64,000 nucleotides of DNA from Malacoraja senta. Its lineage: Eukaryota. The stretch lies in contig CM075989.1 of NCBI GenBank assembly GCA_038087875.1, forward strand, positions 1,302,001 to 1,366,000. The letters are read 5' to 3'. Made by a program: the position numbers and the translations under genes. This document shows, in pieces, positions 10,652 through 62,400 of the stretch (positions are counted from its first letter, which is position 1; each line of letters begins with the position of its first letter). The notes beneath the pieces were generated by a model. The model saw only the letters and a list, made by a program, of their open reading frames with translations. It had not been told where the DNA came from and made no database searches.

Positions 10652-13425
10652 GACTATGAAATAGTTGGGATCACAGAGACATGGCTACAGGGTGACCAAG
10701 GCTGGGAGCTGAACATCCAGGGATATTCAATATTCAGGAGGGATAGACAGAAAGGAAAAGGAGGTGGGGTAGCGTTGCTGGTTAGAGAAGAGATTAACAC
10801 AATAGAAAGGAAGGACATTAGCTTGGAGGATGTGGAATCGATATGGGTAGAGCTGCGAAACACTAAGGGGCAGAAAACGCTAGTGGGAGTTGTGTACAGA
10901 CCACCTAACAGTAGTAGTGTTGTTGGGGATGGCATCAAACATGAAATTAGAAATGCGTGCAACAAAGGTAAAACAGTTATAATGGGTGACTTCAATCTAC
11001 ATATAGATTGAGTGAATCAAATTGGGAGGGGTGCTGAGGAACAGGATTTCTTGGAATGTATGCGGGATAGTTTTCTAAACCAACATGTAGAGGAACCAAC
11101 GAGAGAGCAGGCTATTCTAGACTGGGTATTGAGTAATGAGGAAGGGTTAGTTAGCAGTCGTGTTGTGCGTGGCCCCTTGGGCAAGAGTGACTATAATATG
11201 GTTGAGTTCTTCATTAGGATGGAGAGTGACATAATTAATTCAGAAACAAGCGTTCTGAACTTAAAGAATGGTAACTTTGAGGGTATGAGATGTGAATTGG
11301 CCAAGATAGACTGGCAATTGATTCTTAAAGGGTTGATGGTGGATATGCAATGGAAGGCATTTAAAGGCTGTATGGATGAAATACAACAATTGTTCATCCC
11401 AGTTTGGCAAAAGAATAAATCAAGGAAGGTAGTGCATCCGTGGATAACAAGGGAAATCAGGGATAGTATCAAAACAAAAGATGAAGCATACAAATTAGCC
11501 AGAAAAAGCAGCCTACCAGAGGACTGGGAAAAATTCAGAGTCCAGCAGAGGAGGACAAACGGCTTAATTAGGAAATGGTAAATAGATTATGAAAAAAACC
11601 TGGCAGGGAACATAAAAACTGACTGCAAAAGTTTTTACAGATATGTGAAGAGAAAAAGATTAGTTAAAACAAATGTAGGTCCCTTGCAGTCAGAAACAGG
11701 TGAATTGATCATGGGGAACAAGGACATGGCAGACCAATTAAATAACTACTTTGGTTCTGTCTTCACTAAGGAAGACATAAATAATCTGCCGGAAATAGCA
11801 GGGGACCGGGGGTCAAATGAGATGGAGGAGCTGATTTAAATCCAGGTTAGCCGGGAAGTGGTGTTAGGTAAATTGAATGGATTAAAGGCCGATAAATCCC
11901 CAGGGCCAGATATGCTGCATCCGAGAGTACTTTAGATTTTGGTGTAGTTCCTGAGGATTGGAGGTTAGCTAATGTAACCCCACTTTTTAAAAAGGGAGGG
12001 AGAGAGAAAACGGGGAATTACAGACCAGTTAGTCTAACATCGGTAGTGGGGAAACTGCTAGAGTCAGTTATTAAAGATGGGATAGCAGCACTTTTGGAAA
12101 GTGGTGAAATCATTGGACAAAGTCAGCATGGATTTATGAAAGGTAAATCATGTCTGACGAATCTTATAGAATTTTTCGAGGATGTAACTAGTAGAGTGGA
12201 TAAGGGAGAACCAGTGGATTTGTATCTGGACTTTCAGAAGGCTTTCGACAAGGTCCCACATAAGAGATTAGTATACAAACGTAAATCACACGGTATTGGG
12301 GGTTCAGTATTGATGTGGATAGAGAACTGGCTGGCAAACAGGAAGCAAAGAGTAGGAGTAAATGGGTCCTTTTCACAATGGCAGGCAGTGACTAGTGGGG
12401 TACCGCACGGCTCAGTGCTGGGACCCCAGCTATTTACAATATATATTAATGATTTGGACGAGGGAATTGAATGCAACATCTCCAAGTTTGCGGATGACAC
12501 GAAGCTGGATGGCAGTGTTAGCTGTGAGGAGGATGCTAGGAGGCTTCAAGGTGACTTGGATAGGCTGGGTGAGTGGGCAAATGCATGGCAGATGCAGTAT
12601 AATGTGGATAAATGTGAGGTTATCTACTTTGGTGGCAAAAACAGGAAAGTAGACTATTATCTGAATGGTGGTCGATTAGGAAAAGGGGAGATGCAACGAG
12701 ACCTGGGTGTCATGGTACACCAGTCATTGAAAGTAGGCATGCAGGTGCAGCAGGCAGTGAAGAAAGCGAATGGTATGTTAGCATTCATAGCAAAAGGATT
12801 TGAGTATAAGAGCAGGGAGGTTCTACTGCAGTTGTACAGGGTCTTGGTGAGACCACACCTGGAGTATTGCGTACAGTTTTGGTCTCCTAATCTGAGGAAA
12901 GACATTCTTGCCATAGAGGGAGTACAGAGAAGGTTCACCAGACTGATTCCTGGGATGTCAGGACTTTCATATGAAGAAAGACTGGATAGACTTGGCTTGT
13001 ACTCGCTAGAATTTAGAAGATTGAGGGGGATCTTATAGAAACTTACAAAATTCTTAAGGGCTTGGACAGGCTAGATGCAGGAAGATTGTTCCCAATGTTG
13101 GGGAAGTCCAGAACAAGGGGTCACAGTTTAAGGATAAATGGGAAATCTTTTAGGACCGAGATGAGAAAAACATTTTTTCACACAGAGAGTGGTGAATCTC
13201 TGGAATTCTCTGCCACAGAAGGTAGTTGAGGCCAGTTCATTGGCTATATTTAAGAGGGAGTTAGATGTGGCCCTTATGGCTAAAGGTATCAGGGGGTATG
13301 GAGAGAAGGCAGGTACATTATACTGAGTTGGTCGATCAGCTATGATCATATTGAATGGTGGTGCAGGCTCGAAGGGCCGAATGGCCTACTCCTGCACCTA
13401 TTTTCTATGTTTCTCTGGTTCTATT
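10652..13425 (+). mobile_element. CR1 LINE ORF2 (APE endonuclease and RT), 5'-truncated, with stops and an internal deletion near 11931
   Basis: EIVGITETW, GVVYRPPN, IMGDFN, DFQKAFDKV, KFADDTKL. 3' UTR ends in ctatgtttc-like repeats. Confidence 0.93.
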
Positions 13426-17544: not shown

Positions 17545-18011
17545 TAAGCCTTTCCGATCCATGTACCTAAATGATGTTATTGTACCTGCCTAAACGACTT
17601 CCACTAGCATCGCATTCCTTATACCCAACACCCTGTTTAAAAAGTGACCCTCGGATCCTATTACATCTTTCTCCTCTCACCTTCAACCTATGTCTTATGA
17701 TTCTTGAATTTCCCTACTCTGGGTAAAAGACATTCAACCTATTGATTTTATACAACTCTGTAAAATTACCCCTTAGTCTCCATGTTTCCAAGTAATAAAG
17801 CTGCCCAGTCGCTTCCTATAGCTCAGGCCCTCGAGTCCTGGCAACATTGTTGTAGATCTTGTCTACATTTGTTTCAGCTTAAAGACATCCTTCCAATAGT
17901 AAGGTGCCCAAAATCGAACACAATTCTGCAATTACTGACTCACCAACATCTTGTACAACTGTTACATAATAATCCAACTTCTATACTCAATCTATAATAA
18001 AAAGGAACCGC

Positions 18012-20125
18012 AAATGCATTTAAAGACTGCATGGATGAACTACAACGATTGTTCATCCCAGTTTGGCAAAAGAATAAATCAGGGAAGGTAGTGCATCCGT
18101 GGATAACAAGGAAAATCAGGGATAGTGTCAAAACAAAAGATGATGCGTACAAATCAGTCAGAAAAAGCAGCATACCAGGGGACTGGGAGAAATTCAGAAT
18201 CCAGCAGAGGAGGACAAAGGGCTTAATTAGGAAAGGGAAATTAGATTATGAAAGAAAACTGGCAGGGAACATAAAAACTGACTGCAAAAGTTTTTATAGA
18301 TATGTGAAGAGAAAAAGATTAATTAAAACAAATGTAGGTCCCTTGCAGTCAGAAACAGACAAATTGATCATGGGGAACAAGGACATGGCAGACCAATTCA
18401 ATAACTACTTTGGTTCTGCCTTCACTAAGGAAGACATAAATAATCTGCCGGAAATAGCAGGGGACCGGGGGTCAAATGAGATGGAGGAACTGAGTGAAAT
18501 CCAGGTTAGTCGGGAAGTGGTGTTAGGTAAATTGAATGGATTAAAGTCTGATAAATCCCCAGGGCCAGATACGTTGAATCCCAGAGTACGTAAGGAAGTA
18601 GTCCCAGAAATAGTGGATGCATTAGTGATAATTTTTCAAAACTCTTTAGATTCTGGAGTAGTTCCTGAGGATTGGAGGGTAGCTAATGTAACCCAACTTT
18701 TTAAAAAGGGAGGGAGAGAGAAAACAGGGAATTACAGACCAGTTAGTCTAACATCGGTAGTGGGGAAAATGCTAGAGTCCGTTATTAAAGATGGGATAGC
18801 AGCACATTTGGAAAGTGGTGAATTCATTGGACAAAGTCAGCATGGATTTACGAAAGGTAAATCATGTCTGACGAATCTTATAGAATTTTTCGAGGATGTA
18901 ACTAGTAGAGTGGATAAGGGAGAACCAGTGGATGTGTTATATCTGGACTTTCAGAAGGCTTTTGACAAGGTCCCACTTAAGAGATTAGTATGCAAACTTA
19001 AAGCACACGGTATTGGGGGTTCAGTATTGATGTGGATAGAGAACTGGCTGGCAGACAGGAAGCAAAGAGTAGGAGTAAACGGGTCCTTTTCACAATGGCA
19101 GGCAGTGACTAGTGGGGTACCGCAAGGCTCAGTGCTGGGACCCCAGCTAATTACAATATATATTAATGAACTGGATGAGGGAATTGAATGCAACATCTCC
19201 AAGTTTGCGGATGACACAAAGCTGGGAGGCAGTGTTAGCTGTGAGGAGGATGCTAGGAGTCTGCAAGGTGATTTGGATAGGTTGGGTGAGTGGGCAAATG
19301 CATGGCAGATGCAGTATAATGTGGATACATGTAAGGTTATCCACTTTTGTGGCAAAAACAGGAAAGTAGACTATTATCTGAATGGTGGCCGATTAGGAAA
19401 AGGGGAGATGCAGCGAGACCTGGGTGTCATGGTACACCAGTCATTGAAAGTAGGCATGCAGGTGCAGCAGGCAGTGAAGAAAGCAAATTATATTTTAGCA
19501 TTCATAGCAAAAGGATTTGAGTATAGGAGCAGGGAGGTTCTACTGCAGTTGTACAGGGTCTTGGTGAGACCACACCTGGAGTATTGCGTACAGGTTTGGT
19601 CTCCTAATCTGAGGAAAGACATTCTTGCCATAGAGGGAGTACAGAGAAGGTTCACCAGACTGATTCCTTGGATGGCAGGACTTTCATATGAAGAAAGATT
19701 GGATAGACTCGGCTTGTACTCGCTAGAATTTAGAAGATTGAGGGGGGATCTTATAGAAACTTATAAAATTCTTAAGGGGTTGGACAGGCTAGATGCAGGA
19801 AGATTATTCCTGATGTTGGGGAAGTCCAGAACAAGAGGTCACAGTTTAAGGATAAGGGGGAAGTCTTTTAGCACCGAGATGAGAAAATCATTTTTTACAC
19901 AGAGAGTGGTGAATCTGTGGAATTCTCTGCCACAGAAGGTAGTTGGCTATATTTAAGAGGGAGTTAGATGTGGCCCTTGTGGCTAAAGGTATCAGGGGGT
20001 TTGGAGAGAAGGCAGGTACAGGATACTGATTTGGATGATCAGCCATGATCATATTGAATGGCGGTGCAGGCTCGAAGGGCCGAATGGCCCACTCCTGCAC
20101 CTATTTTCTCTGTTTCTATGTTTCT
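18012..20125 (+). mobile_element. CR1 LINE, 5'-truncated, with an uninterrupted 641-aa RT-containing ORF
   Basis: ORF 18031..19956. Highly similar to 11350-13420. Confidence 0.95.
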
Positions 20126-47030: not shown

Positions 47031-48646
47031 GATGGCGCCACATCTCGGAGAAGGCAGGAGAAAGGGGTTTGGAGGGAGAGATAGATCAGCCATGATTGAA
47101 TGGCAGAGTAGACTCGATGGGTTGAATGGCCTAATTGATAACTTTATATATTAGCACCCGATGAGTATCAGTCAGTGACAAGGCTGTGTGATGGAAGGAG
47201 CAGTGAGTTGGTGGTATTTTACAGTTAGTTTCTGATCGAGACCCTTCTTCAGACTGACCCGAAACGTCACCCATTCCTTCTCTCCAGAGATGCTGCCTGT
47301 CCCGCTGAGTTACTCCAGCTTTTTGTGTCTATCTTCGGTTTAAACCAGCATCTGCAGTTCCTTCTTAAACAGTTAGTTTCTGATGTTTATTTGTTTACAT
47401 GGCTCGTGGTATTGCTGCCGATGTTATTGCCTGGTTTACATGGCATTGTGTGGATAACCTGCATGTAGAGCCAGTGACACAAAAACATTGATTACTCTCA
47501 ACCCATCTGATTCAACATGGCAAGTGATATCACAATGCAATTTAAATGGAACACGTTTCATCTCAGCAGCAGCATCGGACTAACTTCAATGGTACATTTG
47601 GGAGGCAATGAGAAGCATTCTGTGATGTTGTTTGAGATTGAATTTTTCTAATAGTTCACAAGCAGGTCAGGTCAATATTTCCTGCCCATTCCAAGCTCCC
47701 TCTGAGCTTCACGACTTGCTAACTTGTTTTAAAGGGCGGTTAAGAGGCAGCTCGAAAGCTTCTGGTCTGGGATTGCAGGTTGGCTGATGTCAAGAGTGTC
47801 TTATTGTCGTAAGTCCCAGACGGAACAATGAGATTCTTACTTGCAACAGCGCAATAGAATATGTAAACATAGTACACTGTAAACAATATAATAAACGAGA
47901 ACAAAAGGTCAGTGTGTGAGTGTGTAGGAAGGAACTCCAGTTGCTGGTTTAAACTGAAGATAGACACAAAATGCTGGAGTAACTCAGCCAGACAGGCAGC
48001 ATCTCTGGAGAGAAGGAATGGGTGAAGTTATGTGTCGAGACCCTTCAACAGACAGAGTCAGGGGAGAGGGAGATACAGGCAACGAGCCAAAGGGGATGGA
48101 GAACAAGGAACATGTAGAACACGAGAAGGTAATAATAAAGCAAACAGAGGTGCAATGTAAACAAGGACAGTCAGGCTGGTCGGTGAATTGGGAAGGGGGG
48201 AGGGATGGAGAGAGAGGGAAAGCAAAGGTTACTTGAAATTGGATGGCATGGTGGCACAGCAGTAGAATTGCTACCATACAAAGCTTGCAGCGCTGGATGG
48301 TACAATGCTTGCAGCGCTAGCATTCTCCCTGTGACCTGCGTGGGTTTTCTCCGAGATCTTTGGTTTCCACGCACACTCCAAAGTTGTACAGGTTTGTTGG
48401 TTAATTGGCTTGGTATAAGTGTAAATAGGAAGATTAAACGAGAACTTACCAGTTTGAAGTTTGATCTTTATTTTATGAGAAGTTGCGATGAGGGATTACG
48501 TGAAGAAGCCCGCCAGCCCGCATGCGTGTCAACCTTCAAAGCAGCGGTGTGAAATCACAGAAAACAGTTGCTGAACTGATTATAGGAAGATTCGAGAACT
48601 AGAAGTACCACATGATCTTTATGAGAAGAGGGTTGGGAGTGGAGGG

Positions 48647-48756
48647 CACGTAATCCCTCATCGTAACTTCTCATAAAATAAAGATCAAACTTCAAACTGG
48701 TAAGTTCTCGTTTAATCTTCCTATTTCACTTCGAAGTCATGTGAGTGACTACGTGA
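48647..48756. repeat. DIRS copy 1 internal complementary region (ICR)
   Basis: 48647-48726 is the reverse complement of the terminus 48423-48502. About 48723-48756 is the reverse complement of the other terminus, about 53277-53309. Confidence 0.92.
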
Positions 48757-48942
48757 TGACTTTAAAGATCTGTGATTTCATGCCGCGAACACGAGTCCAT
48801 GCAACACACTGCATTAGTTGACCAGAAATGATTTGAAAAGATAATGCATTCAGACATGACATAGCTTTAAAACATGCTAGTGCTTTTAATAAAGAAATGA
48901 TAATAATAATAATAGTGATCCCTTACATCCGGGAAAAGCTAA

Positions 48943-49913
48943 TTATTGAACAGAACTTAAAATTGAGTTGGCAAACGAACCCGGCCTGGCAATTGGTTTA
49001 TTATAAATGGTTTGGAAAGTCCGCTCCTTCGACCATCCTGCAGTCACCAGGATGTGGTCCAGCTGAACCTCCATGAACCTCGCTGCTGAAGTTGTTGCAG
49101 CCCTGGTGGAGTGAGATTTAAAAACATCAGTGTCCATTCCTGCACAAGCCAATACATGTCTTAACCACCTGGAGATGGTCTGCACTGATACCCTCTTGTG
49201 TGTTTTTTTATGACTAACAAACATTGCCAGTTCAGTGCCTCTCAGGTTCTTTGTAGCCTTAACATATTGTTGAATATGTGTGACCACACACAATCTATGG
49301 TCCATGGGATTCCAGCTTTAGCCCTAACAGTAGCCCCTGGTCTACTTTGTTTAATTAGCTCATGTACATAAAACGTTATTTTGTTGGTAGAAATAACCAT
49401 TCTGTCCAGCCGCAGCTTATGCAACGACTGGACGCGTTGTGCTGAAACTAGCACCATGAGCATCACTACTTTATATGTGAGCCTGACCAAAGATAGGGAT
49501 GTAGCTGGAGCCCACCGGCGAAGCAAAGTTAATACAATGTTAACATCCCATACCACTGTGTACCTGGGCCTGGGAGGATTAATGTTAAAGATACCCTTCA
49601 TAAATCTGGATATCAGCGGATGAGACCCGACAGAGTGGTGTCCCAATCCCAGCAACAAGTATGATGACAAGGCACTTTTGGCACAGTTAATGGCACTATA
49701 ACTTAATCTTTCGTCAAAGAACAGTTTTGAGAGAAACTCCAAGACATCAGCTATCCGTGCTGTATCGTACGTTATGTTGGAATTAAAACAAAACACTTCC
49801 CATCTCCTGATGTAAGAGATGTACTGCTTCTTGGTGCTATCTCTCCAAGCTGCAGTGATCACGTCCACGGTTCGGTCTGACAATCCGAGCCACAAGAAAG
49901 GTCTTCTCAAAGT
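48943..49913 (-). pseudogene. DIRS copy 1 tyrosine recombinase (frameshift/deletion)
   Basis: SAQRVQSL (catalytic R box) and FKSHSTRAA...AGWS...TFQTIY (H-x-x-R, W, Y) in ORFs 49242..49919 and 48943..49305. Confidence 0.9.
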
Positions 49914-51835
49914 CTGCAAATCAATAAATTGATTCTATCATGCAGAGGGTGGCCTTCCCGAGTCACGGGATGAACCAGCAAATTGTTGTGTTTCGAAATA
50001 ACCATATAAGGCTCTATTATAATTCCCAATATCAGCAGGACCCATGGCTGCGTAGGCCAGTCAGGCACTACCAATATGCCTGAAGCGGAATCTTGCTGGA
50101 GTTTTTGCAAGCACCGACTGATGAGGCAAAATGGAGGAAATGCATAAAAGAACATTCCTCCTCAGTGTAGTGAGAATGCATCTATCGCCACTGCTCCTGG
50201 GTCTGGCTCCCATGCAACATAATTTGGTAACTGGTGATGAGCCTAGATGCAAACAAATCGATATCCGGTGTTCCATACCGAGCAACAATGTCGTTAAATA
50301 CTTTATGATCCAACATCCATTCTGTGTTGTCATTGAATTTGCGTGACCTGGTGTCCACCACCATGTTAAACCTACCTGGCAAGTAGGTAGGTGAAATCCA
50401 AATGCTTTTTTCGATACACCAGTGCCAAATGAGGTTAGCTAAATTATCACAGGATACTGACTTGATTCTACCCATGTGATTAATATATGCCACCGCTGTA
50501 GTGTTGTCAATCTGTAGTTCAACATGCAGATTATGCATATTCCCACAATAAGCTTTTAACCCATAAAATGCCCCCATCATCTCCAGGTAGTTGATACCAT
50601 GTAACTGAAGAATTGATAACTCATGCACATCCCATCTGCCACCGCAACTAGAGATGGTATTAGTAGCTCCCCATCCTTGAGAACTAGCATCAATTTGTAA
50701 TATAACTGAAGGTTTACTGACCAAAATGTTACTGGAGCAATGCCGAATATTGGTCATCCACCATTATAATTCTGATATAGCTTCAGCTGGTAATAGCATA
50801 GGTCTGTTAAAGTGACCTAAATGGTATTTGAGTGCTTGCTCCTTTGCACATTGTAAATTCTGATAATGCAAAGGCCCAAATTGTGCAGCTGGAAAAACAG
50901 CCACTAATTTGCCAATTGCACTAGCCACCTGTTGAATAGATGGCTGATCCATAACAACAAGGTTGTTACAGGTTTCTATTAATTCTAATCTCTTGCCCCA
51001 GGGCAGTCACAGACATATTAATAGAGTTAATGGTAAATCCCAAATAATTAATAACTCTAGTTGGTATCAACTTAGATTTAACTGGATGGATGAGAAACCC
51101 CAACTTCTCAAATATGAGTTTCGTGGCTGAAACAGCTAATTTAGCCAATTTCAGCGTTTTTCCTATGATTAGAATATCATCCAGTTATGCCATAATAATG
51201 TTTTTGAGCTCTGAGCAGCCCAAGCACCGGTTTTAATAATTTGGTAAATAACCTGGGGGCTGATGTTAACCCATTAGGCAACGCTTTAAACTGCCACAGT
51301 TGCCCCATCCAGCTAAATTTCAAATATCTCCGGTGATCCCTGTGAATGGGCACCGAACAGTATGCATCTTTGAGATCGATGCATGCCATAAAGCATCCTT
51401 TGGAAATCAGTTGTTTGACAGTACGAAGTTTTCCATTTTAAAATGTCTATACTGCACATAAGAGTTAAGTTGTGTTAAATCAAGGATGATCCGACATCCT
51501 CCATCTTTCTTTTGTCTAGAGAAAATATTGGAGACGAATTGGTGATGTTCATGACTTGACTTCTCGATTACCCCTTTTGTGTATAATGTGTGAATTTCAG
51601 CTTGTATATCCAAACCTTCTTGTTTGGAATGAACAAATGTCCAGCTTGGTGTATGTTGTGTGGGTGGCATTGAATTGGGAAGAAATTCAATTTGGAACCC
51701 TTGTATACTGTGCAGTATAAATGGATCTGATGTTATCCATCGTCATTCGTGCAAAAACAAGTGTAATCTACCACCAACTTGTAACTGGTCCACACACCCC
51801 ATGTTCCGGAAAGAACCATACCCACCTACCTCCAT
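49907..51835 (-). pseudogene. DIRS copy 1 pol: RT, RNase H and methyltransferase-like domain (fragmented)
   Basis: Fragments GGCRIILDL, IDLKDAY, LPNGLTSAPRLFTK, QIDAS..GWG, INYLE, IDNTTAVAYIN, DIDLFASR and FYAFPPF across several frameshifted ORFs. Confidence 0.88.
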
Positions 51836-51882
51836 GGTTACCGGTGGTCTTATGGTAGGCCCAAAGGCCCCTGATGCGGGTT

Positions 51883-53097
51883 CTATTTCTGTCCTCGAGG
51901 TTTGGAGGGTAGGACTGCTGGAGTGCGCGGATTGCGCATTTTCCATGAGGGCCGGCTTGGGCCTTGGCCTAAAAAATACCTCTGCCCAGAGAAATCAGCT
52001 TTCGAGCTGCCACCAACTTCAGTGAACCACTTACTGCTGATGGAGGCGTAGGGGTGTTGTCGCCGAAACGGTGAAGCTTTGCTCATCGTTGGTGCCTTGA
52101 TTAGCCCAACAGCTTTTGCATCCTCATCCAGGTCTTTTACCTGTTTGGGTAGATCTTCCCCGATCAGAAGATTCGGCGGCTGGACATTGCTGGCCTTACA
52201 TAAGCCTGCAAATTTGGGATTTAATGCAGGTCTGATGGCGTTCTTCCAAAAGCAGTTCATTTCGAAGTGCGCATTGCACACCAACACCAGGGCATCCTGC
52301 TGGACGTCCGATAAGGGCCCGCCATCCATAGATCTGGTAAATGCCGTAATGCCTGAAGCCAGTAATTTTAAAATTCTTTGGAGTTTCATTTCCTGGGCTT
52401 TGATGCCCCCTCCAATGTATCCCCAGAGAGAGCTGTTCACTGCCGGCACTTTCAGGGATGCACAATTTACAGGTGTATGGTATTTGGCAGCCGTTTCAAC
52501 CATCTCCTGTTCCTTTTATAGATGCGACGTGAGGTAGTTGTTGCTGGAAGCCAGCTCTTCTTACATTTGCGAGGGTATCGCAATCCTTGATGCCATGGCA
52601 GGCAATTCTTGAACCTCACTCATGTCATGCATTCCAGTATGTTCCACGGACATACCTCCGAGTTCGGAGTCAGTCATATACTGACCCCGTACACTCCCCT
52701 CCTCAGAGTGGGAGACATTAAGCAGCCCTGGACCAGGCGCAGCCACAGGCACGAAAGGAGACCTGCGCTGATATGTTTCCTTTTCACGGAGCATATCATG
52801 ATGGAGCATCCTTTCCATAAGGTGCTCCATCCGGGATAAACGCCCGAAGATGCTATCCATGTTTGTAGGAGGAGAATCCTCCTGGCCTGACTCGTCTGAG
52901 TCTACAGGCCTATCAGACTTCCTTTTGGCTTTGCTCCCTTTCGGGGTTGCCAAAGTGCTTTGGGCAAGCATCAAGTCTGAAGTCACTGTCAGTGACTCGG
53001 ACGGCGAAATCGACGGTCACCGGCTACCCGAACTCCCGTGGTCCTCCGTAGCCGGTCTCCCCGCGGCCTGTCTGGGTTTCGCCCTGGATTTTTCCAT
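51883..53097 (-). pseudogene. DIRS copy 1 gag-like ORF (single frame, two premature stops)
   Basis: ATG at 53097 (MEKSRAKPRQAA...) is in the same frame as ORFs 52561..52986 and 51883..52503. Homologous to copy 2 gag (PAVN.S.WG.IG, IRPALNPK). Confidence 0.8.
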
Positions 53098-53417
53098 AAT
53101 TCATTCAGCAATTGGAACTCTGTAATGAGAATTTTTCACCAAAAAACTACCTCAGAATAAGTTTGAAACTTACCTGCAGGGTTTTAAACTTACCGCTGGA
53201 GGAGCGACGCTCCTCCCAGCCAGTCGTGCGCCATGCGTTGGACGTATTGACGCGCATGCGGGCTGGCGGTCTTCTTCACGTGGTCACTCACATGACTTCG
53301 AAGTAAAATTGTCCCTCGTGTGTGTAAGATAGTGTTAATGTGGGGAGATCATTGGTCAGTGCGGACTCAGTGGGCCGAAGGATCTGTTTTCACATAGTAT
53401 CTCTAAACTAAACTAAA

Positions 53418-54580
53418 CTAGATGTCAATATTCATACCACTGGGGTGTAAGCTGCCCATGCGAAATATGAGGTACTGTTCCTCCAATTTGCGCTGGGCCT
53501 CACTCTGACAATGGAGGAGGCCCAGGACAGAAAGGTCAGATTGGGAATGGGAGGGGGAGTTAAAGTGCTGAGCAACCGGGAGATTAGATAGGTTAAGGCG
53601 GACTGAGCGGAGGTGTTCAGCGAAATGATCGCCGAGTCTGCGCTCGGTCTCGCCAAGATACAGGAGTCCACACCTGGAACAGCGGATACAATAGATGGGG
53701 TTAGAGGACATGCAAGTGAACCTCTGCCGCATCTGAAAAGACTGTCGGGGTCCTTGGATGGAGTCAAGGGAGGAGGAATAGGGACAGGTGTTGCATCTCC
53801 TGCAGTTGCAGGGGAAATACCTGGGGAGGGGGTGGTTTGGGTGGGAAGGGACGAGTTGACCAGGGAGTTGCAGACGGAATGGTCTCTGCAGAAAGCGGAA
53901 AGGGGTGACGGTGGGAAGATGTGACTTGTGATGGAATGCTTTTGGAGGTGGCAAAAATGCCAGAGGATTATGTGCTGTATACGGCGGCCGATGGGGTAGA
54001 AGGTGAGGACTAGGGGGACTCGGTCCATATTGTGACTCGGGGAGGGGGAGCAAGGGTGGAGCTGCAGGATATCGAGGAGACCCTAGTGAGGGCCTCATCT
54101 ATGATGGAAGAGGGGAACCCCCGTTGCCTAAAGGATGAGGACATCTCCAATGCCCTGGTATGGAACAACTCATTTTGGGGGCAGATGCGGCGTAGATGGA
54201 GGAATTGGGAGTAGGGAATAGAGTCTTTACTAGAAGCAGGGTGGGAAGAAGTGTGGTCTAGATAGCTGTGAGAGTCAGTGGGTTTATAATAAATGTCAGT
54301 CGATAGTCTATCTCCTGTGATGGAGACTGTGAGAACAAAAAATAGTAGGGAGATGTCGGAGATGGTCAAAGTAAATTTGAGTGCAGGATGGAAAATAGAA
54401 GTAAAGTTAATGATGTCAGTGAGTGCTGCATGGGTGCAGGAGGTAGCACCGATGCAGCCGTCAATGTAGTGGAGGTAGAGTTCGGGCCAGTGTACAGGGA
54501 TACATTGAACAGGGATTGTTCAATGTACCCTAAAAAGAGGCAGGCATAGCTGGGGCCCATGCGAGTGCCCATAGCTACGC
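53418..54580 (-). mobile_element. Penelope-like element, RT and GIY-YIG fragment (degenerate)
   Basis: MGTRMGPSYACLF, TDIYYKPTDSHSYL..SSHP...SIPYSQF, IYCIRCSRCGLLYLGET. Further 3' fragments at about 10165-10560, 39660-40015, 48040-48240 and 63060-63390. Confidence 0.88.
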
Positions 54581-54634
54581 CTAGGATTTGGAGCCAGAGT
54601 ACGCCTGGAACAAGGATTGTTTGACGTACCCTAC

Positions 54635-54675
<41 letters not shown>

Positions 54676-55044
54676 TCATATATATGTATATATGTAATAT
54701 ATATTTATATAGATATACATGTAGGCGTACATACAAATATAAACCAACAGTAATATTGTAAAAAGACAAACCCAATGTCCCCAATTCTGTGTAGTTCAGA
54801 GCTTGCAGTATATGAGGTTGTAGTGTTTAATAGTAAGATTAAACGAGAACTTACCAGTTTGAAGTTTGATCTTTATTTTATGAGGAGTTACGTTGAGGGA
54901 TTACGTGAAGAGCCCGCCAGGGCGCATGCGCGACATATCTTCAAAGCAGTGGTGTGAAATCACAGATACGGTAGTCGAAATAACATAGTAAGATAAGAAC
55001 AATAATACCAGCTGACCTTTATAATAGAGGGTGGGCGTGGAGGG

Positions 55045-55157
55045 CACGTAATCCCTCAACGTAACTCCTCATAAAATAAAGATCAAACTTCAAACTGGTA
55101 AGTTCTCATTTAATCTTCCTATTTTACTTCGGAGTCACGTGAGTGACTACGTGAAGA
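55045..55157. repeat. DIRS copy 2 internal complementary region (ICR)
   Basis: Reverse complement of 54829-54907 joined to the reverse complement of about 59612-59649. Confidence 0.92.
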
Positions 55158-55330
55158 TTTTAAAGCTCTGTGATTTCATGTCACGGAACAAGTCCATGCT
55201 TCACACCCTGCTGTCGTAGACTGAGGAGGAAGTATGTTAACAAATCCAGACATGAATCAATTGTTAAAAAGAAACAACAAGTGATTTATTAACACAAATT
55301 ATAATAATGATCCCTATCCTTCAGGGCGTA

Positions 55331-56312
55331 TTATAAAACAGAACTCAAAATAGTATCTGCAAAAGTCATAGGCTTAGCAACTGGCTTATTATAAAATTCT
55401 TGGAAGGTCTTCTCCCTGGACCATCCTGCCGTACCCAAGATGTGATCCATTGGAACCTCCATGTGCCGTGCTGCCGATGTGGCTGCAGCCCTGGTGGAAT
55501 GAGATTTGAAAATATCAGTATCCACCCCTGCAGCCCCCAAAACCTGTCGAAGCCACCTAGATATTGTTTGGGTCGATACCCTGTTGGGAGGTCTTTTGTG
55601 GCTCACTAATAGTGCCAATTCTTGGCCTCTTTCTTTAGCTGTTAGTTCAATGTAAAGTAACAGATGTGTCATAACGCATAAGCGAACATCTGTAGGGTGT
55701 GCCCGAAACTCTAGTTTGAGGCCTGATGACTGACCCTGGTCTGTTTTGTTTTACCAGTTCATGAATATAAAATGTTGTACCATTTGTCCCTTTGGCCATC
55801 GAGTCCAGTCGTAATTTGTGTAGCGATTGCACCCGCTGGGCCGAGACCAGTGCCATCAGCATTACCAATTTAAGGGTAAGTTTCTCCAGGGACAGGGATG
55901 TTGCTGGTGACCAACCCCGAAGCAACGTCAACACAATACTCACATCCCAAATGTTAGAGTATCTGGCCCTAGGGGGATTCGAGTTAAATATACCCCTCAT
56001 TAGTTTGGAAACCAAGGGGTGAGACCCCAGTGAATGGTGGTCAAATCCCCACCACAAATAGGTGGATAGGGCACTCCTGGTGCTGTTGATGGCACTGTAG
56101 CTAAGCCTTTCATCAAAATGAAGGTTAGAGAGGAACTCCAGGACATTAGTTACAATGGCTGAGTTATACTTAACATTAGTCCTGGAACAATAACGTTCCC
56201 ATTTCCTGATATAAGTCAGGTACTGTTTTCTGGTAGACTCTCTTTGTGCCGCCGCGATCATGTTGATGGTTCGGTCCGTCAGTCCAAGATCCGGAAGTGG
56301 CCTATTCAAATT
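55331..56312 (-). pseudogene. DIRS copy 2 tyrosine recombinase (one frameshift near 55720)
   Basis: SAQRVQSL, KSHSTRAA, AGWS...TFQEFY. Confidence 0.92.
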
Positions 56313-58241
56313 CTGCAAATTAACAGATTAGTCCTGTCATGGCATGGATGACTTTCGCCAGTTACAGGATGGACCATTAAGTCTGGTCTTTTAGTGACGG
56401 CCATACATGGTTTTGAAACCATGTCGAGAACCACAGGGAACCATGGCTGCGTAGGCCAGTCGGGTACTACCAAAATACCTGACGCAGAGTCTTGTTGTAT
56501 TTTGCGTGAGACCCGACTGATGAGGCAGAAGGGGGGAAATGCATAGAAAAACAAATTTCCCCAGTGCAGCGAAAATGCGTCCATAGCTGCTGCCCCAGGG
56601 TCTGGTTCCCACGCAACATATGTCGGCAACTGGTGGTTAAGCCTAGATGCAAATAGATCGATATCTGGTGTTCCATATCTTGCTATGATGTCTGCAAACA
56701 CTTTGAGGTCCAACATCCATTCAGTGTTGTCATTAAATTTCCGTGACCTGGTGTCTGCCACTGAATTAAGTTTACCTGGTAGGTAAATAGCAGATATCCA
56801 AATGTTTCTCTTGATACACCATTGCCAGATTGAATTGGCCAGATCATCACATGATATCGATCTGATTCCACCCATGTGATTAATATAAGCCACCACAGTG
56901 GTATTATCTATTTGCAGGCGAACATGCAAATGATGCATTTTTTAACAGTACGCCTTCAAACCATAGAATGCTCCCAACATTTCCAAATAATTTATACCAA
57001 GTGTATAAAGCAAAGATGATTCATGCACATCCCATCTGCCCCCACAACTGGAGATGGTGTTGGTGGCACCCCAACCTTGAGCGCTGGCATCAGTCTGTAA
57101 TACAACTGACGGGTTGCTAATAATAATGGAGCTGTAGGAACGCCGAATGTTATGTGTCCACCATCGCAGTTCCAAAATAGCTTTTGTTGGTAATTGCATT
57201 GGTCTATCGAAATGACCAGCATGATGTTTAAGTGCTCGCACCTTTGCTCTCTGTAAATTTTGATAGTGCAAAGGTCCAAAGTGTGTCACTGGAAAAACAG
57301 CTATGATTTTGCCAATTACCCTTGCAAGTAGTCTGATAGATGGTTGACTGATGACAGCAAGGTTGCTGCAAACTTCCATTAATTCAGTTGCCTTTCCCCT
57401 AGGTAAAGTCACAGTCATGTGAACTGAATTAATGGTGAATCCCAAATAGTCCATAGTCGTGGATGGTGTTAACTTTGATTTATCTGGATGGATGATAAAC
57501 CCCAGTTTCTCAAATAGACCTATGGTAGCTGTAACAGCTAAATAGGCTAATTCGTAGGTTTTACCCACGATTAGTATGTCATCTAAATACGCCATGACTA
57601 TATGTTTTTGTTTCAGAAGAACCGCCAGAGCTGGTTTCAGTAATTTAGTGAATAATCTGGGGGCTGAGGTCAATCCATTAGGTAGTGCTTTGTACTGCCA
57701 AAGCTGCCCCATCCAGTTAAACTTCAGATATCGGCGGTGATCCTTGTGTATAGGCACCGAATAGTATGCATCTTTTAAATCGATGCATGCCATGAAGTAG
57801 CCTTCGGAAATCAATTGTTTGGCCGTGTCAAAGGTTTCCATTTTGAAGTGAGTATACTGCACAAATGTGTTCAATTGTCTTAAATCAATAATGATGCGAC
57901 ATCCACCATCTTTTTTTCTTTTTTGTGAAAATGTTTGACACAAATTCTTGAGACTCATGTTGAGATCTCTCAATTACACCCTTAGTATAAAGCCTCTTAA
58001 TTTCGGCATGACCATCCAACTTCTCTTGTTGTGATAGTATAAATGATCTGATGGGTGCATGCTGAACCGGAGGAAGGCGTTTGTTTTCGAATTCAATTTC
58101 ATATCCTTGAACACTATGCGGTATATAAGAATCAGAGGTTATTGATCTCCATGCCTCACTAAACCAGTGTAACCTACCACCAACAAGTGTATCCATTGCA
58201 CCCGCTATGTCCTGCGAGGAACCAGACCCACCTACCTCCAT
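56306..58241 (-). pseudogene. DIRS copy 2 pol: RT (YLDD), RNase H and methyltransferase-like domain
   Basis: ORFs 57885..58325, 56942..57973 and 56306..56938. One frameshift in an A-run near 57915 and one in-frame TAA at 56942. Motifs IDLKDAY, AYLDDILI, TDAS, DLFAS, YAFPPF. Confidence 0.92.
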
Positions 58242-58258
58242 GGTTACCAGTGGGGTGT

Positions 58259-59449
58259 TCATCTCTTCTTCTTCTGTTTCTTGGCCGATTGAGGTGCTTG
58301 TATTTGGGGTTGGCGCATCTTCCACGAAGGTCGCTCTGGGCCGTGGTCTAAAAAAGACCTTTGTCCTTGAGCTGCGGCCTTTGAGCTTTCACCAGCTTCG
58401 ATGTGACGTGGCCTGCTGGTGGATGCGTAGGGGTGCTGTCGCCGAGGTATTTTCCCCGATGCCTGATGAGCCCGGCGGCTTTCGCCTCTTCATCCAGGTC
58501 TTTAACCTGTTTGGATAGGTTGCCCCCGAATAACAAAATTGGCGGCGGTGTGGTGTTGGTCTTACACAGATCCGCACATTTGGGGTTCAAGGCTGGGCGG
58601 ATGGAGTACTTACGGAAACAGTTGATCTCGAACTGTGTATTGCAGAGCATCGCCAGCGTATCTTGCTGTGCCTCTGTCATTTCCGTGTCATCCACCGACC
58701 GGGCAAATGCTGTAATCCCAGTTGTTAAAAGTTTGAGGATTTTCTGCATTTGTACCTCCTGTGCCCTTACACCTGCACCAATATGTCCCCAGATGGAGGG
58801 ATTCACTGCTGGGACATTCAGTGAAGTACAGTTCCCTGGTGCCAGGTATTTTGCAGTAGTTTCATTAACTGCCTGTTCTTGTAATTGATGGGTTGATAGG
58901 TAGTCAATGCTGGCTGCTAGTTGTTGTTTCAGCGGCTGCCCTGACTGTGGAGGCACCGTAAACTTTTTCACCATGCCCAGCATCTTCTCTTCTGGCACCC
59001 CCAGCACACTTGAGGTATCTTCAGCCAACCCTTGTTCGGAGTCAGCCCAGAAATGATTCCCAATGCTCCCCTCTGTCGAGGGAGATGCATTGTGCAGCCC
59101 TGAAAAAGGTACTGCCATGGGCTTCCTCGGAGGCCCGTAGTGACTTGACTCCTGCTCACGGAGTTTGTCACGGTGAAGCAATTGCTCCACCAGCCGTTCC
59201 AGACGTGTAATGCGACTACTGTCGCTATCTGCCGGCGGCGTTTGCTCATGGCCCGATACATCGGAGTCCATGAGCGTGTCCCATCTATTGGCGTTCCTGT
59301 CAGCCTGTGGCGACCCAGGCTGCACAGGTGCCGGGACAGAGACCGCTGATCGATGCTGCAGTCGGCTGCTGCTGGCTCCCGGTACTCTCGCGGTCCTCCT
59401 CAGCCAGTTTCTTAGCGGCCCGTTTGGACTTGGTACGGGTCCTGTCCAT
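58259..59449 (-). pseudogene. DIRS copy 2 gag-like ORF (two frameshifts)
   Basis: ATG at 59449 (MDRTRTKSKRAA, homologous to the copy 1 N-terminus). Core is ORF 58348..59325. The C-terminus RSFLDHGPERPSWKMR matches copy 1 RYFLGQGPSRPSWKMR in another frame. Confidence 0.8.
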
Positions 59450-62400
59450 CGTTGTCCTTCCTGGAACAGAAAGACACCCGAAAAAACGACCTCAGAGTAA
59501 GTAACTTACCTGTAGGTCTCTGTTTTAAGCTTACCGCTGCGGGGAGCGGTCCCCCCCCTCCTGTCGCTCTCAATGCGCTAGCGATATGTCGCTCATGCGC
59601 CCTGGCGGGCTCTTCACGTAGTCACTCACGTGACTCCAAAGTAAAATAGCCTGATCACTGTACGGAAGAAGCTGTTCCTGTATCTTCTTCCCAAAGGCAG
59701 GAGGAAATGAGTCTGTGGCCAGAATAGTATAGACCTCTGATGATGCTGGCTCGCTTGTTGAGGCAGTGTCTCTTGTAGATCCCTTCAATGGTGGGGATGT
59801 CAGAACCCGTGATGGACGGGACAGAGTTCACCACTTTTTGCAGTCTTCTTGAGGGATGGTAGTTTTACTTCACAGCCCTGAAGGATTACAATGAATCATG
59901 GAGTCATCCAGCACGGAAATAGGCCCTTCGGCCCAAGTCGTGCATGGCAGCCAAGGTGCCTTTCCCAATGTCTTCTTCATGTTGTTATGCACCTGACTCA
60001 ACTACCTTCTCTGGCAGCACATTCAATATACCCGTCAACCTCTGTGTGAAAAAGTTGTTCCTCGTGCCTATTAAATCTTTTCCCTTCCAGGAATAAAGTT
60101 CTAGCCTGCCCAACCTCTCCCTATAGCTCAGGTGCTCGCTTCTTGACAACATCAGGTGTGCTTTTTGCAATAATAAAAACAGAAAGTGCTGGAAACACTC
60201 AACAGGTCAGGCAGCGCTGGGAGAAAGAAGTGGAAAGAATGTGGGCCCAGTGTAGTAAACCTGCCACAATTTGAAGTGGATGTTCTCCTGGTGAAGACCT
60301 GGAGTGTTAATCTTAGGATCCAAGATGGCGTCCAACCCAGGCAACTCTTTGTGTACTGGTCACAGAAGTGGGTCTGCAATCACGCTTTACATTTGCTCCA
60401 CTCTTTTAAATTTCTATTCTGACAGCAACATTCCTTACTTTAAATCTGCTCTTCGTAATCTCCGTTCAGGCATTCTTTATGGCTGGCTTTATCGTGCACT
60501 AAATGTCATTGACGTTATTCCCTTTATCATTTATCTGTACACTGTGGATGGCTTGATTGGAATCATGTAGGGTCTTTCTGCTGACTGGTTGGCACCCAAC
60601 AAAAGCTTTTCACTGTACCTCGATACACATGACAATGAACTAAACTCAATACAAACTCAACTCAAACTCAACTCCAGCCCTGCCCTAAGTTCACTCTTCT
60701 GATCCGAGCTGTTTGTGCTGTTGCTGCCTGGGCTCCACTGTGTGCCCCAGGCCTATGCTGAGAAAAACAAATAGCTTCCACTCAGGCATTGTGCCCTTTG
60801 GGTGAGTGTTCTGACTCGCCCAGCTGGTGGAGGGGTTGTGGGGAAAGATAAGGTGTAAGTAACATGTGAGAAAGATTGGTCTGTTATCAGAAAAAAAACG
60901 GATAAAATGCCTACATTTCTGAACAGGCAAGTAATGGACTTATTCTATATTGATTCAAAGTTCATTCATTTGAGCAGCATGGTTATATTTTGCCACCACA
61001 ATGTTTATTGACGTTTCACTATGTGGCTACATTCAGCCTAACCAACTTTAAACAAAATAATGCTCAATTGTATGCGGAACAATTGTGTAGAACTGTTGGT
61101 TTATACCAAAGATAGACACAAAGTGCTGGAGTAATGGATACTATTTCTCCAGAGATGCCGCCTGACCCGCTCAGTTACACCAGCACTTTGTATCTCCTTT
61201 AGTGAAGGTGTATGTTCTGCAAGCCCTGCCTCCTGGCAAGTGTAACATTCAAAAACAATTGAGGTGGGAACTATTCCCTTCAATCCCACAGCAGCTCCAA
61301 CCTTCCGCTACAATTCTCACACCCACCCCAAAATCCATCCCGAATTCTCACTCCCTTCCATTAGTAGAATGACGTGAAACGTTCAATGTTGGTTCCACCA
61401 AGACTTCCTCCCAGTCTGGGCCCTGAATGTGGTAGACCTGCCACACGTTCCAGCCACATTCGTGGACCTAGCAGGAATGATTCAATGTACATATTATGTG
61501 CAACTCACTTCTTCTGGGTTCATTATACAAATCGACCATACTTATTAACCTGTTCAGTGCCACCCCTGAGTATACTCAGGCCACGGGCAATAGCAAAATA
61601 TTTTTTGGCAGTGAACAGGTTAAAGTCAGCTCCCTTCTTCTGAAGAGCCCTGACCTGAAATGTCACCCTTCCCCAGATGCTGCCTGACCCATAGAGTTCC
61701 TCCAGCACACTGCGTTTCAACCAGGATTGCATCATCTGCAGTTCCTTAAGTCTCAATATTTATTAAAATGTAAGGCATTGTGTATTTGTACTGCAGTCCA
61801 GTCAGAATAAGTTAGTAGACACAAAAAGCTGGAGTAACTCTCTGGAGAAAAGGAATAGGTGATGTTTCAGTTCAAGACCTTTCTTCAGACTCAGAGTTAA
61901 GAGAGAGGGAAACTAGGTATGAAAAGGTTCAGAACAAGCGTGGCACCGTGGCGCAGCGGTAGAGTTGCTGCCTTATAGCGTTTATAGCACCAGAGACCCG
62001 GCTTCGATCCCAACTACGGAGTTTGTACATTCTCCCCATGACCGTGTGGGTTTTCTCCGAGATCATCGGTTTCCACAAACACTCCAAAGACGTACAGGTT
62101 TGTAGGTTAATTTGGCTTGGTATAAATGTAAAATTGTCCCTGGTGTGTGTAGGATAGTGTTAGTGTGCGGGGATCGCTGGTCAGTGCAGACTCGATGGGC
62201 TGAAGGGCCTTTTTCCCACGTTATATCTCTAAACTAAACTAAACTAAACACACCACAGACGTATTCAGGCATTATTCTGCATCGTTGTGCTGACAGGAGA
62301 CCATCGATGAATGTCTTCCCCATTCTGAGAGTCAAATCTATTTCTGACACACATCACATCCTGCACATTTAGTCAATCTTGTTGGATGGTGCAATATATC

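Follow-up and report, generated by a model that had tools for sequence, protein, structure and literature searches.

A tyrosine recombinase (YR) frame lies behind pol in each of the two DIRS1-like retrotransposons contained in our window, a 64,000-nucleotide (nt) stretch of the Malacoraja senta genome (contig CM075989.1). An earlier note on this DNA had proposed that this frame is fed by an intron spanning the whole of pol, and comparison with distant elements strongly supports the proposal. The splice signals on the two sides of pol are a real, conserved feature, and their conservation makes it very probable that the pol-spanning splice itself takes place. We further consider it probable, on the same comparative grounds, that the unspliced RNA would give Gag and, by a −1 ribosomal slip, Gag-Pol while also serving as the template, and that the spliced RNA would give Gag and a Gag-YR fusion.

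Splice signals and the end of gag in four families of this genome

The two copies represent two families, A (copy 2) and B (copy 1), which are about 70% identical; gag, pol and YR are all broken in each copy. For families A and B we took the best 30 of 40 and the best 30 of 47 genomic matches, respectively, listed for the two copies. Two further families of the genome, C and D, whose identity to one another and to A and B is 68-81%, are represented by 20 further copies (L143-L162), hand-picked out of 123 matches. Because the copies inside one family are recent relatives, the independent units are the four families. Many family C copies among the 123 matches scored have a stop-free YR frame, and this family looks younger than those of the window.

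The earlier note located the boundaries correctly (copy 2 and copy 1, respectively): the ATG at 58241-58239 and 51835-51833, the donor GT at 58235 and 51829, and the acceptor AG at 56314-56313 and 49915-49914. The intron lengths of 1923 and 1916 nt are also right, as is phase 0, with 6 exon nt from ATG to donor in frame with YR. One detail needs amending, as pol does not end at the AG immediately before YR; it continues for one codon beyond the AG and then stops. The note had proposed checking whether the splice motifs are conserved, and they are: the donor GT is present in 60/60 genomic A/B copies (30/30 in each family; the full GAG/GTAGGT, the slash marking the splice site, in 25/30 A and 28/30 B), and the acceptor YAG in 58/59 (30/30 A; 28/29 B, one copy lacking the region). 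Donor and acceptor are the same in families C and D. Genome-wide, an exact search for the 19-nt donor motif gives 1604 hits, and the motif reversed, as a control, gives none. The sequence features of a GT-AG intron are found in frame, i.e., 5' site, branch-like motif, pyrimidine tract and YAG.

YR is read in the −1 frame relative to pol and shares a short stretch with the pol end. Above the acceptor, a stop usually closes the YR frame at a distance of 5-8 codons; below it, the frame of intact copies stays open for 325 codons. In copy 2, where the earlier note had seen a stop four codons upstream, five open YR codons precede the acceptor. The note had also described YR as having no conserved ATG of its own, a description that fits family B, in which the first Met is usually codon 105, but not the others, with a first Met at codon 18 in copy 2 and most of family A, at codon 19 in C and at codon 2 in D. 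Codons 3-17 precede the first Met in A and C, and yet across the four families they vary as coding sequence does, with identities of 0.79/0.82/0.48 at the three codon positions. The overlap of pol and YR is short, as noted earlier, but this is not the unusual trait it was taken for, since long overlaps occur in only half of 28 DIRS elements (PMC3266345; here and below, papers are cited from their accessible parts). With pol flanked by a conserved phase-0 donor and by an acceptor that keeps the frame, the recombinase is likely to come from a spliced RNA.

The heptamers U UUU UUA and A AAA AAC are classic −1 frameshift sites. Inside the end of gag, U UUU UUA is kept in 46/60 A/B copies, and 37/46 of these have a −1 frame that reaches the donor without a stop and in phase; the intact gag frames (400-407 aa, 5 copies) read the heptamer in the correct register, and all four families keep both the heptamer and the open transframe segment. 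Since the frame is open back to this heptamer, the front part shared by Pol and YR is likely Gag plus a transframe peptide.

Distant relatives and the proposed expression plan

Relatives were collected by YR alignment, taking the best 80 of 194 metagenome loci and 2 genome-contig loci. Anchoring gave 79 elements, including four of our own copies, in 48 clusters at 85% identity, 27 of which hold the pol start. Named proteins related to the distant elements come from molluscs, cnidarians and echinoderms; among viral contigs no relative was found. Two loci lie on contigs of bacterial metagenome-assembled genomes (L141 and L142, titled Nitrospirales and Anaerolineae); their DIRS-like elements, of which that in L142 has slip site, donor and acceptor, are probably eukaryotic contamination of the bins. 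Another element, L132, appears to follow a different expression plan, with gag entering pol in frame over a possible short intron (L132:1000-1500). Its 702-codon open 'YR frame', considered as a case of long overlap, was rejected after a frame check as the product of an indel.

Nearly all clusters carry AG/GTRAG in phase 0 upstream of a conserved xGGRL motif, within sequence that cannot be aligned and at a distance from the motif that varies from 21 to 90 nt. Scored with metazoan donor frequencies, the best donor falls in phase 0 in 22/27 clusters, and donors of at least 5 bits number 16 in phase 0, 3 in phase 1 and 0 in phase 2 among the 27; of 1298 control windows in pol, which overlap one another, 0.6% reach that score. 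In all 24 scorable clusters, L082, L111 and L132 having been dropped, gag ends 8-53 nt ahead of the donor; under a uniform null, given a donor after the stop, the probability of this is about 1e-3, a value that wrongly treats the clusters as independent. A stop this close to a junction escapes nonsense-mediated decay, and the spacing is compatible with such an escape.

The slip site is similarly widespread. A slippery run in the pol frame, with the frame open from the run to the donor, is present in 25/27 clusters (17 U UUU UUA, 5 A AAA AAC and 3 U UUU UUG). Control windows of 30 codons contain such a run in 13/470 cases and the searched regions measure 34-117 codons, so that about 3-10% would be expected by chance. 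Hairpins of −17.6 to −21.5 kcal/mol follow all five A AAA AAC sites. In 18 of the 22 donor-bearing non-fish clusters, the open frame above the donor contains no in-frame Met.

For the acceptor, 43 of 50 clusters could be scored (5 without an in-frame PPF motif and 2 that were too short were dropped), and 37/43 have an in-phase YAG with an open YR frame behind it. The acceptor takes two forms. In 13/43 clusters, our four families included, the YAG stands at YR codon 1, with a more pyrimidine-rich tract and a Cys after PPF, and the frame is closed just upstream, with 2-8 stops in the 70 codons above. In 24/43, an in-phase YAG comes directly after the pyrimidine-rich PPF codons or four codons further on, and the YR frame is open for the roughly 70 codons to YR; control −1-frame windows are open in 10/194 cases. 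No cluster of the 43 has both types, and 6 have neither. Clusters of the upstream type carry the AG at one position or the other but hardly ever at both (16 first, 10 second, 1 both, 3 neither), the AG four codons after the first PPF site being present in 10/13 clusters when the first-site AG is absent and in 1/17 when it is present.

From these signals we propose the following plan. The gag frame, of about 400 aa, runs through U UUU UUA, from which the −1 frame is open into pol, and a fraction of ribosomes would slip at the heptamer to make Gag-Pol on the unspliced RNA. A splice that joins GAG/GT, 8-53 nt beyond the end of gag, to the YAG where the conserved YR codons begin would remove RT (reverse transcriptase) and the putative RNase H and methyltransferase, and the same −1 slip on the spliced RNA would then produce a Gag-transframe-YR fusion. 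By analogy with established retroelement biology, the Gag part could carry both RT and YR into the same particle, with the unspliced RNA remaining the template; in the lineage studied here, the ATG just before the donor might act as an extra, Gag-free start. Three NCBI gene models, XP_072032829.1 and XP_072043497.1 from Amphiura and one from Phlebotomus (P0173), have a gag plus a transframe-like segment joined to YR without RT. We lean somewhat towards a broader statement, that animal DIRS1-like elements share an undescribed two-switch code in which a −1 frameshift and a pol-spanning intron would yield Gag and its fusions with Pol and with the recombinase. Under this code the position of the donor would avert nonsense-mediated decay, the acceptor would have moved among three in-phase positions, and a stop-start ATG in cartilaginous fish would add Gag-free Pol and recombinase.

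Several observations weigh against this plan. The three gag-YR models are themselves predictions, and none of 225 fetched YR proteins starts with Met-Glu at YR codon 1. In this genome the pyrimidine tract of the acceptor is modest (9-10 of 17), and the acceptor sits in conserved pol codons (Cys-Arg); within pol, AGR already accounts for 65% of Arg codons. The folding test, which covered hairpins, finds none that would stimulate slipping behind the heptamer of this genome's families (z 1.3, 0.4 and 0.0), and z falls below −1 in only 8/25 clusters. L111 has a slip site without a donor, L132 has neither, and L068, L119 and L132 show no acceptor at the one site or the other. The switch between the first and the +4 acceptor amounts to 5 changes on a quick tree, of which well-supported branches force only 1. 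The two acceptor types divide along essentially one branch of the YR quick tree, so that the Fisher p of 1.5e-8 counts one event.

Genomic traces of the spliced RNA were also sought. In other retroelements, the products of splicing often stay out of the particle. The search for a genomic copy that has lost the pol intron gave 0 exact matches, against 1604 unspliced donors, and a loose search gave 3 matches that are not DIRS; both results count against the plan. As the RT of DIRS-1 is able to act in trans (PMC7192593), the missing copies argue mildly against an abundant packaged spliced RNA. In two runs from a single study, with contigs totalling 1955 and 1233 million letters, none of the joints inspected, 9 in one comparison and 15 of 56 in another, is the predicted junction; these contigs are probably genomic and uninformative on expression.

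Alternative routes to the recombinase

An alternative that we regard as unlikely accepts the splice but has both RT and YR start at the ATG that lies six bases 5' of the donor and is reached either through a spliced leader or by ribosomes re-initiating once gag has ended, so that Pol and Met-Glu-YR would be made without Gag. This ATG, with A at −3 and G at +4, is present in 60/60 A/B copies and in families C and D, yet an ATG two codons 5' of the donor is confined to these four families and is absent from 24/24 non-fish clusters. A gag-frame TAA stands two bases 5' of it in all four families (TAA-CY-ATG; window 58246-58236, L143-L162) and is the true gag stop in C and D, whereas in A and B, although the TAA is kept, gag stops earlier, 17 and 47 nt ahead of the ATG, with further ATGs between the heptamer and it. 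The four families also have leader donors (AG/GTAAG in 21/24 A and 22/23 B copies, with a leader acceptor YAG in 24/24 and 25/25 and spans of about 50 and 74 nt), and their heptamer is followed by an AG that could double as an acceptor; however, most invertebrate elements lack a leader donor, and 9/25 slip sites have no AG behind them. Moreover, all four families still keep the heptamer and the open transframe segment.

Two candidate generalisations were rejected in this connection. A U-run plus AG before pol is not a second acceptor in general (9/25 sites without the AG, and A AAA AAC in its place in 5), nor is the leader donor a general feature, as at most 3/11 invertebrate elements with a mapped 5' end have one. 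The claim of the earlier note that RT and YR come from one start codon is thus supported in part: all four families here have the ATG, but the non-fish clusters do not, and a shared start is probably neither the rule nor the chief mechanism; the note was probably right about the splice and wrong about the start codon as a general rule. The ATG is possibly an extra, lineage-specific start, given that each of the four families has the gag-frame TAA two bases ahead of it.

We consider it improbable that splicing is absent altogether, with ribosomes shifting from pol into YR within the short overlap and the splice-like motifs being by-products of conserved codons. YR does lie in the −1 frame over the pol end, a slip of this kind has been proposed in print for Ngaro (Poulter and Butler 2015, quoted in PMC13003380), and no junction turned up in the genomic matches or among the joints listed in the two probably genomic runs; but none of the four families has an X XXY YYZ heptamer in its overlap of 6-8 codons, for want of which we rejected the slip, and overlap heptamers occur in only 11/43 clusters, with varied sequences. 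It would also leave unexplained the phase-0 donor in unconserved sequence and the opening of the YR frame at an in-phase YAG. Least probable of all is a short RNA coding for YR alone, made from an internal promoter or by joining the leader donor to the YR acceptor, with a start at an internal Met or near-cognate codon: this genome's families keep a strong leader donor (CAG/GTAAGT), which may pair with a downstream acceptor since it lies only about 50 nt from the gag acceptor, and Met stands at YR codon 2, 18 and 19 in families D, A and C, but in family B a start at the first Met, at 105, would lose the SAM-like domain (residues 23-85), the codons above Met18/19 are conserved as coding, and most invertebrate elements lack the leader donor.

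Identity of the elements and known systems

The window elements are DIRS1-like, as judged by the diagnostic features given in PMC3266345: in both copies, self-alignment finds inverted terminal repeats (ITRs) and an internal complementary region (ICR) that matches both ends with a 3-nt AAT circular junction, the ends are ATT, and RT and YR are present. Direct repeats are found inside neither element, the self-alignment giving inverted matches only, so that the split direct repeats of Ngaro/PAT are missing. Pol contains an RT domain (PF00078, E 4.9e-22), and the recombinase is a tyrosine recombinase rather than a DDE integrase (PF00589 at 27.5 bits with a cut-off of 27.1, PF13495, in natural intact copies; HSTR motif). 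A Dam methyltransferase match (PF05869, E 0.026) is below cut-off. RNase H has no Pfam match in pol, where a YAFPPF motif is present, and gag (open reading frame 1, ORF1) has none either and is named by position and by its ORF of 400-407 aa in 5 natural copies. The closest named proteins are from Leucoraja erinacea. Coordinates are collected in Table 1.

Table 1 Positions of elements, signals and coding segments of the two copies within the window
Feature	Copy	Position	Strand	Remarks
DIRS1-like element (family A)	2	54829..59647	−	ATT at both ends; broken by indels and stops
5' leader	2	59461..59534	−	donor-like GT at 59534 and 59509; polypyrimidine/CAG acceptor ending 59461, just 5' of gag ATG
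gag (ORF1)	2	58259..59449	−	frame-shifted in this copy; 400 aa in natural intact copies; stop TGA 58261-58259
U UUU UUA heptamer, predicted −1 frameshift site from gag to pol frame	2	58349..58355	−	
Open transframe segment, pol frame, heptamer to donor	2	58236..58355	−	40 codons; gag-frame TAA 58246-58244; ATG 58241-58239
Predicted phase-0 intron, 1923 nt	2	56313..58235	−	GTAGGT...CTAAT...TTTGCAG; holds RT, RNase H region, methyltransferase-like domain
Tyrosine recombinase exon	2	55331..56312	−	325 aa when intact; frameshifted in this copy; SAM-like domain at the N-terminus plus a catalytic domain
ICR with AAT circular junction	2	55045..55157	−	from self-alignment
Right terminus (ITR and extension)	2	54829..54939	−	conserved GGTAAGT motif
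DIRS1-like element (family B)	1	48424..53309	−	broken
5' leader	1	53120..53193	−	donor-like sites 53193, 53173; acceptor 53120 before gag
U UUU UUA heptamer, predicted −1 frameshift site	1	51970..51976	−	
Open transframe segment	1	51830..51976	−	49 codons; gag stop TAG 51885-51883; ATG 51835-51833
Predicted phase-0 intron spanning pol, 1916 nt	1	49914..51829	−	donor and acceptor signals
Tyrosine recombinase exon	1	48943..49913	−	first Met codon 105; frameshifted here

Splice-like motifs are also present outside the coding region. The leader acceptor before the gag ATG is a site of the kind inferred for LAP2alpha, where a captured DIRS gag would have brought its own acceptor (PMC4495291); no intron-less genomic copy was found for the one family A leader junction searched. 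At the right termini (54855-54829 and 48450-48424, minus strand), a donor-like GGTAAG(T) is followed by TCGTTTAAT, an arrangement kept also in the distant invertebrate elements L061-L065, L071, L102 and L119; the motif may bind U1 or mark a recombination site. Between the two DIRS copies (53418-54704, minus strand) lie broken RT and GIY-YIG-like frames, which we take to resemble a Penelope-like element. Elsewhere in the window, two RT stretches of the long interspersed nuclear element (LINE) type (11012-13213 and 18001-19956, plus strand), 6.7 kb apart and 92-96% alike, are either recent copies or a local duplication.

With known DIRS1-like elements (PMC3266345, PMC9210276, PMC5633606, PMC7192593), the elements described here share the ITRs, the ICR with AAT, the ATT ends, RT, YR and the short pol/YR overlap, and probably also gag, RNase H and methyltransferase. 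In the accessible text of these papers no splice or gag-pol frameshift is described for the known elements, and that of PMC3266345 and PMC9210276 does not mention splicing or introns, so that the expression plan is the new part. No published description of the plan was found in the accessible parts of PMC7192593, PMC4495291, PMC9210276, PMC3266345, PMC13003380, PMC6681497, PMC4157794, PMC5633606 and bioRxiv 10.64898/2026.05.21.726589, among others, a scope that excludes Poulter and Butler 2015, Goodwin and Poulter 2001, Repbase reports and supplements. Apparently, this is a known family with an undescribed expression plan.

The individual devices have precedents. Spliced RNAs that skip pol express the downstream gene in the case of retroviral env, and foamy viruses use a spliced RNA for pol. 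The enzymes are fused to Gag by a −1 slip late in gag, at U UUU UUA in human immunodeficiency virus type 1 and at A AAA AAC in mouse mammary tumour virus and human T-cell leukaemia virus. Retroviruses thus have the same heptamers and the same pol-skipping splice as we propose for the DIRS elements; in contrast to them, the DIRS donor lies after gag, so that splicing would leave gag in place and exchange one frameshift product, Pol, for the other, YR. The integrating enzyme of the DIRS elements also differs, being a tyrosine recombinase, and neither a protease nor an env is seen here. Conserved alternative splicing also balances the proteins of Ty1/copia retrotransposons through a short-Gag RNA, e.g., in EVD (PMC5580714), but that splice yields Gag alone, whereas the DIRS splice, together with the frameshift, would yield recombinase. 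Ngaro (Poulter and Butler 2015, as quoted in PMC13003380) has the same start-less YR overlapping the pol end in the −1 frame, but it belongs to another superfamily with split direct repeats, and the pol-to-YR slip proposed for it has no slippery site in the DIRS elements here.

The translation of the DIRS recombinase has so far been left open or ascribed to a ribosomal slip from pol to YR, and the present model supplies exact junctions and a frameshift site. What it proposes, by inference from conservation, is a new arrangement of known mechanisms rather than new biochemistry. If true, ORF-based annotations of these recombinases would have the wrong N-terminus, a Gag-recombinase fusion would explain how an element without a protease brings its integrating enzyme to its cDNA, and host splicing would be a control point for an abundant group of transposons.

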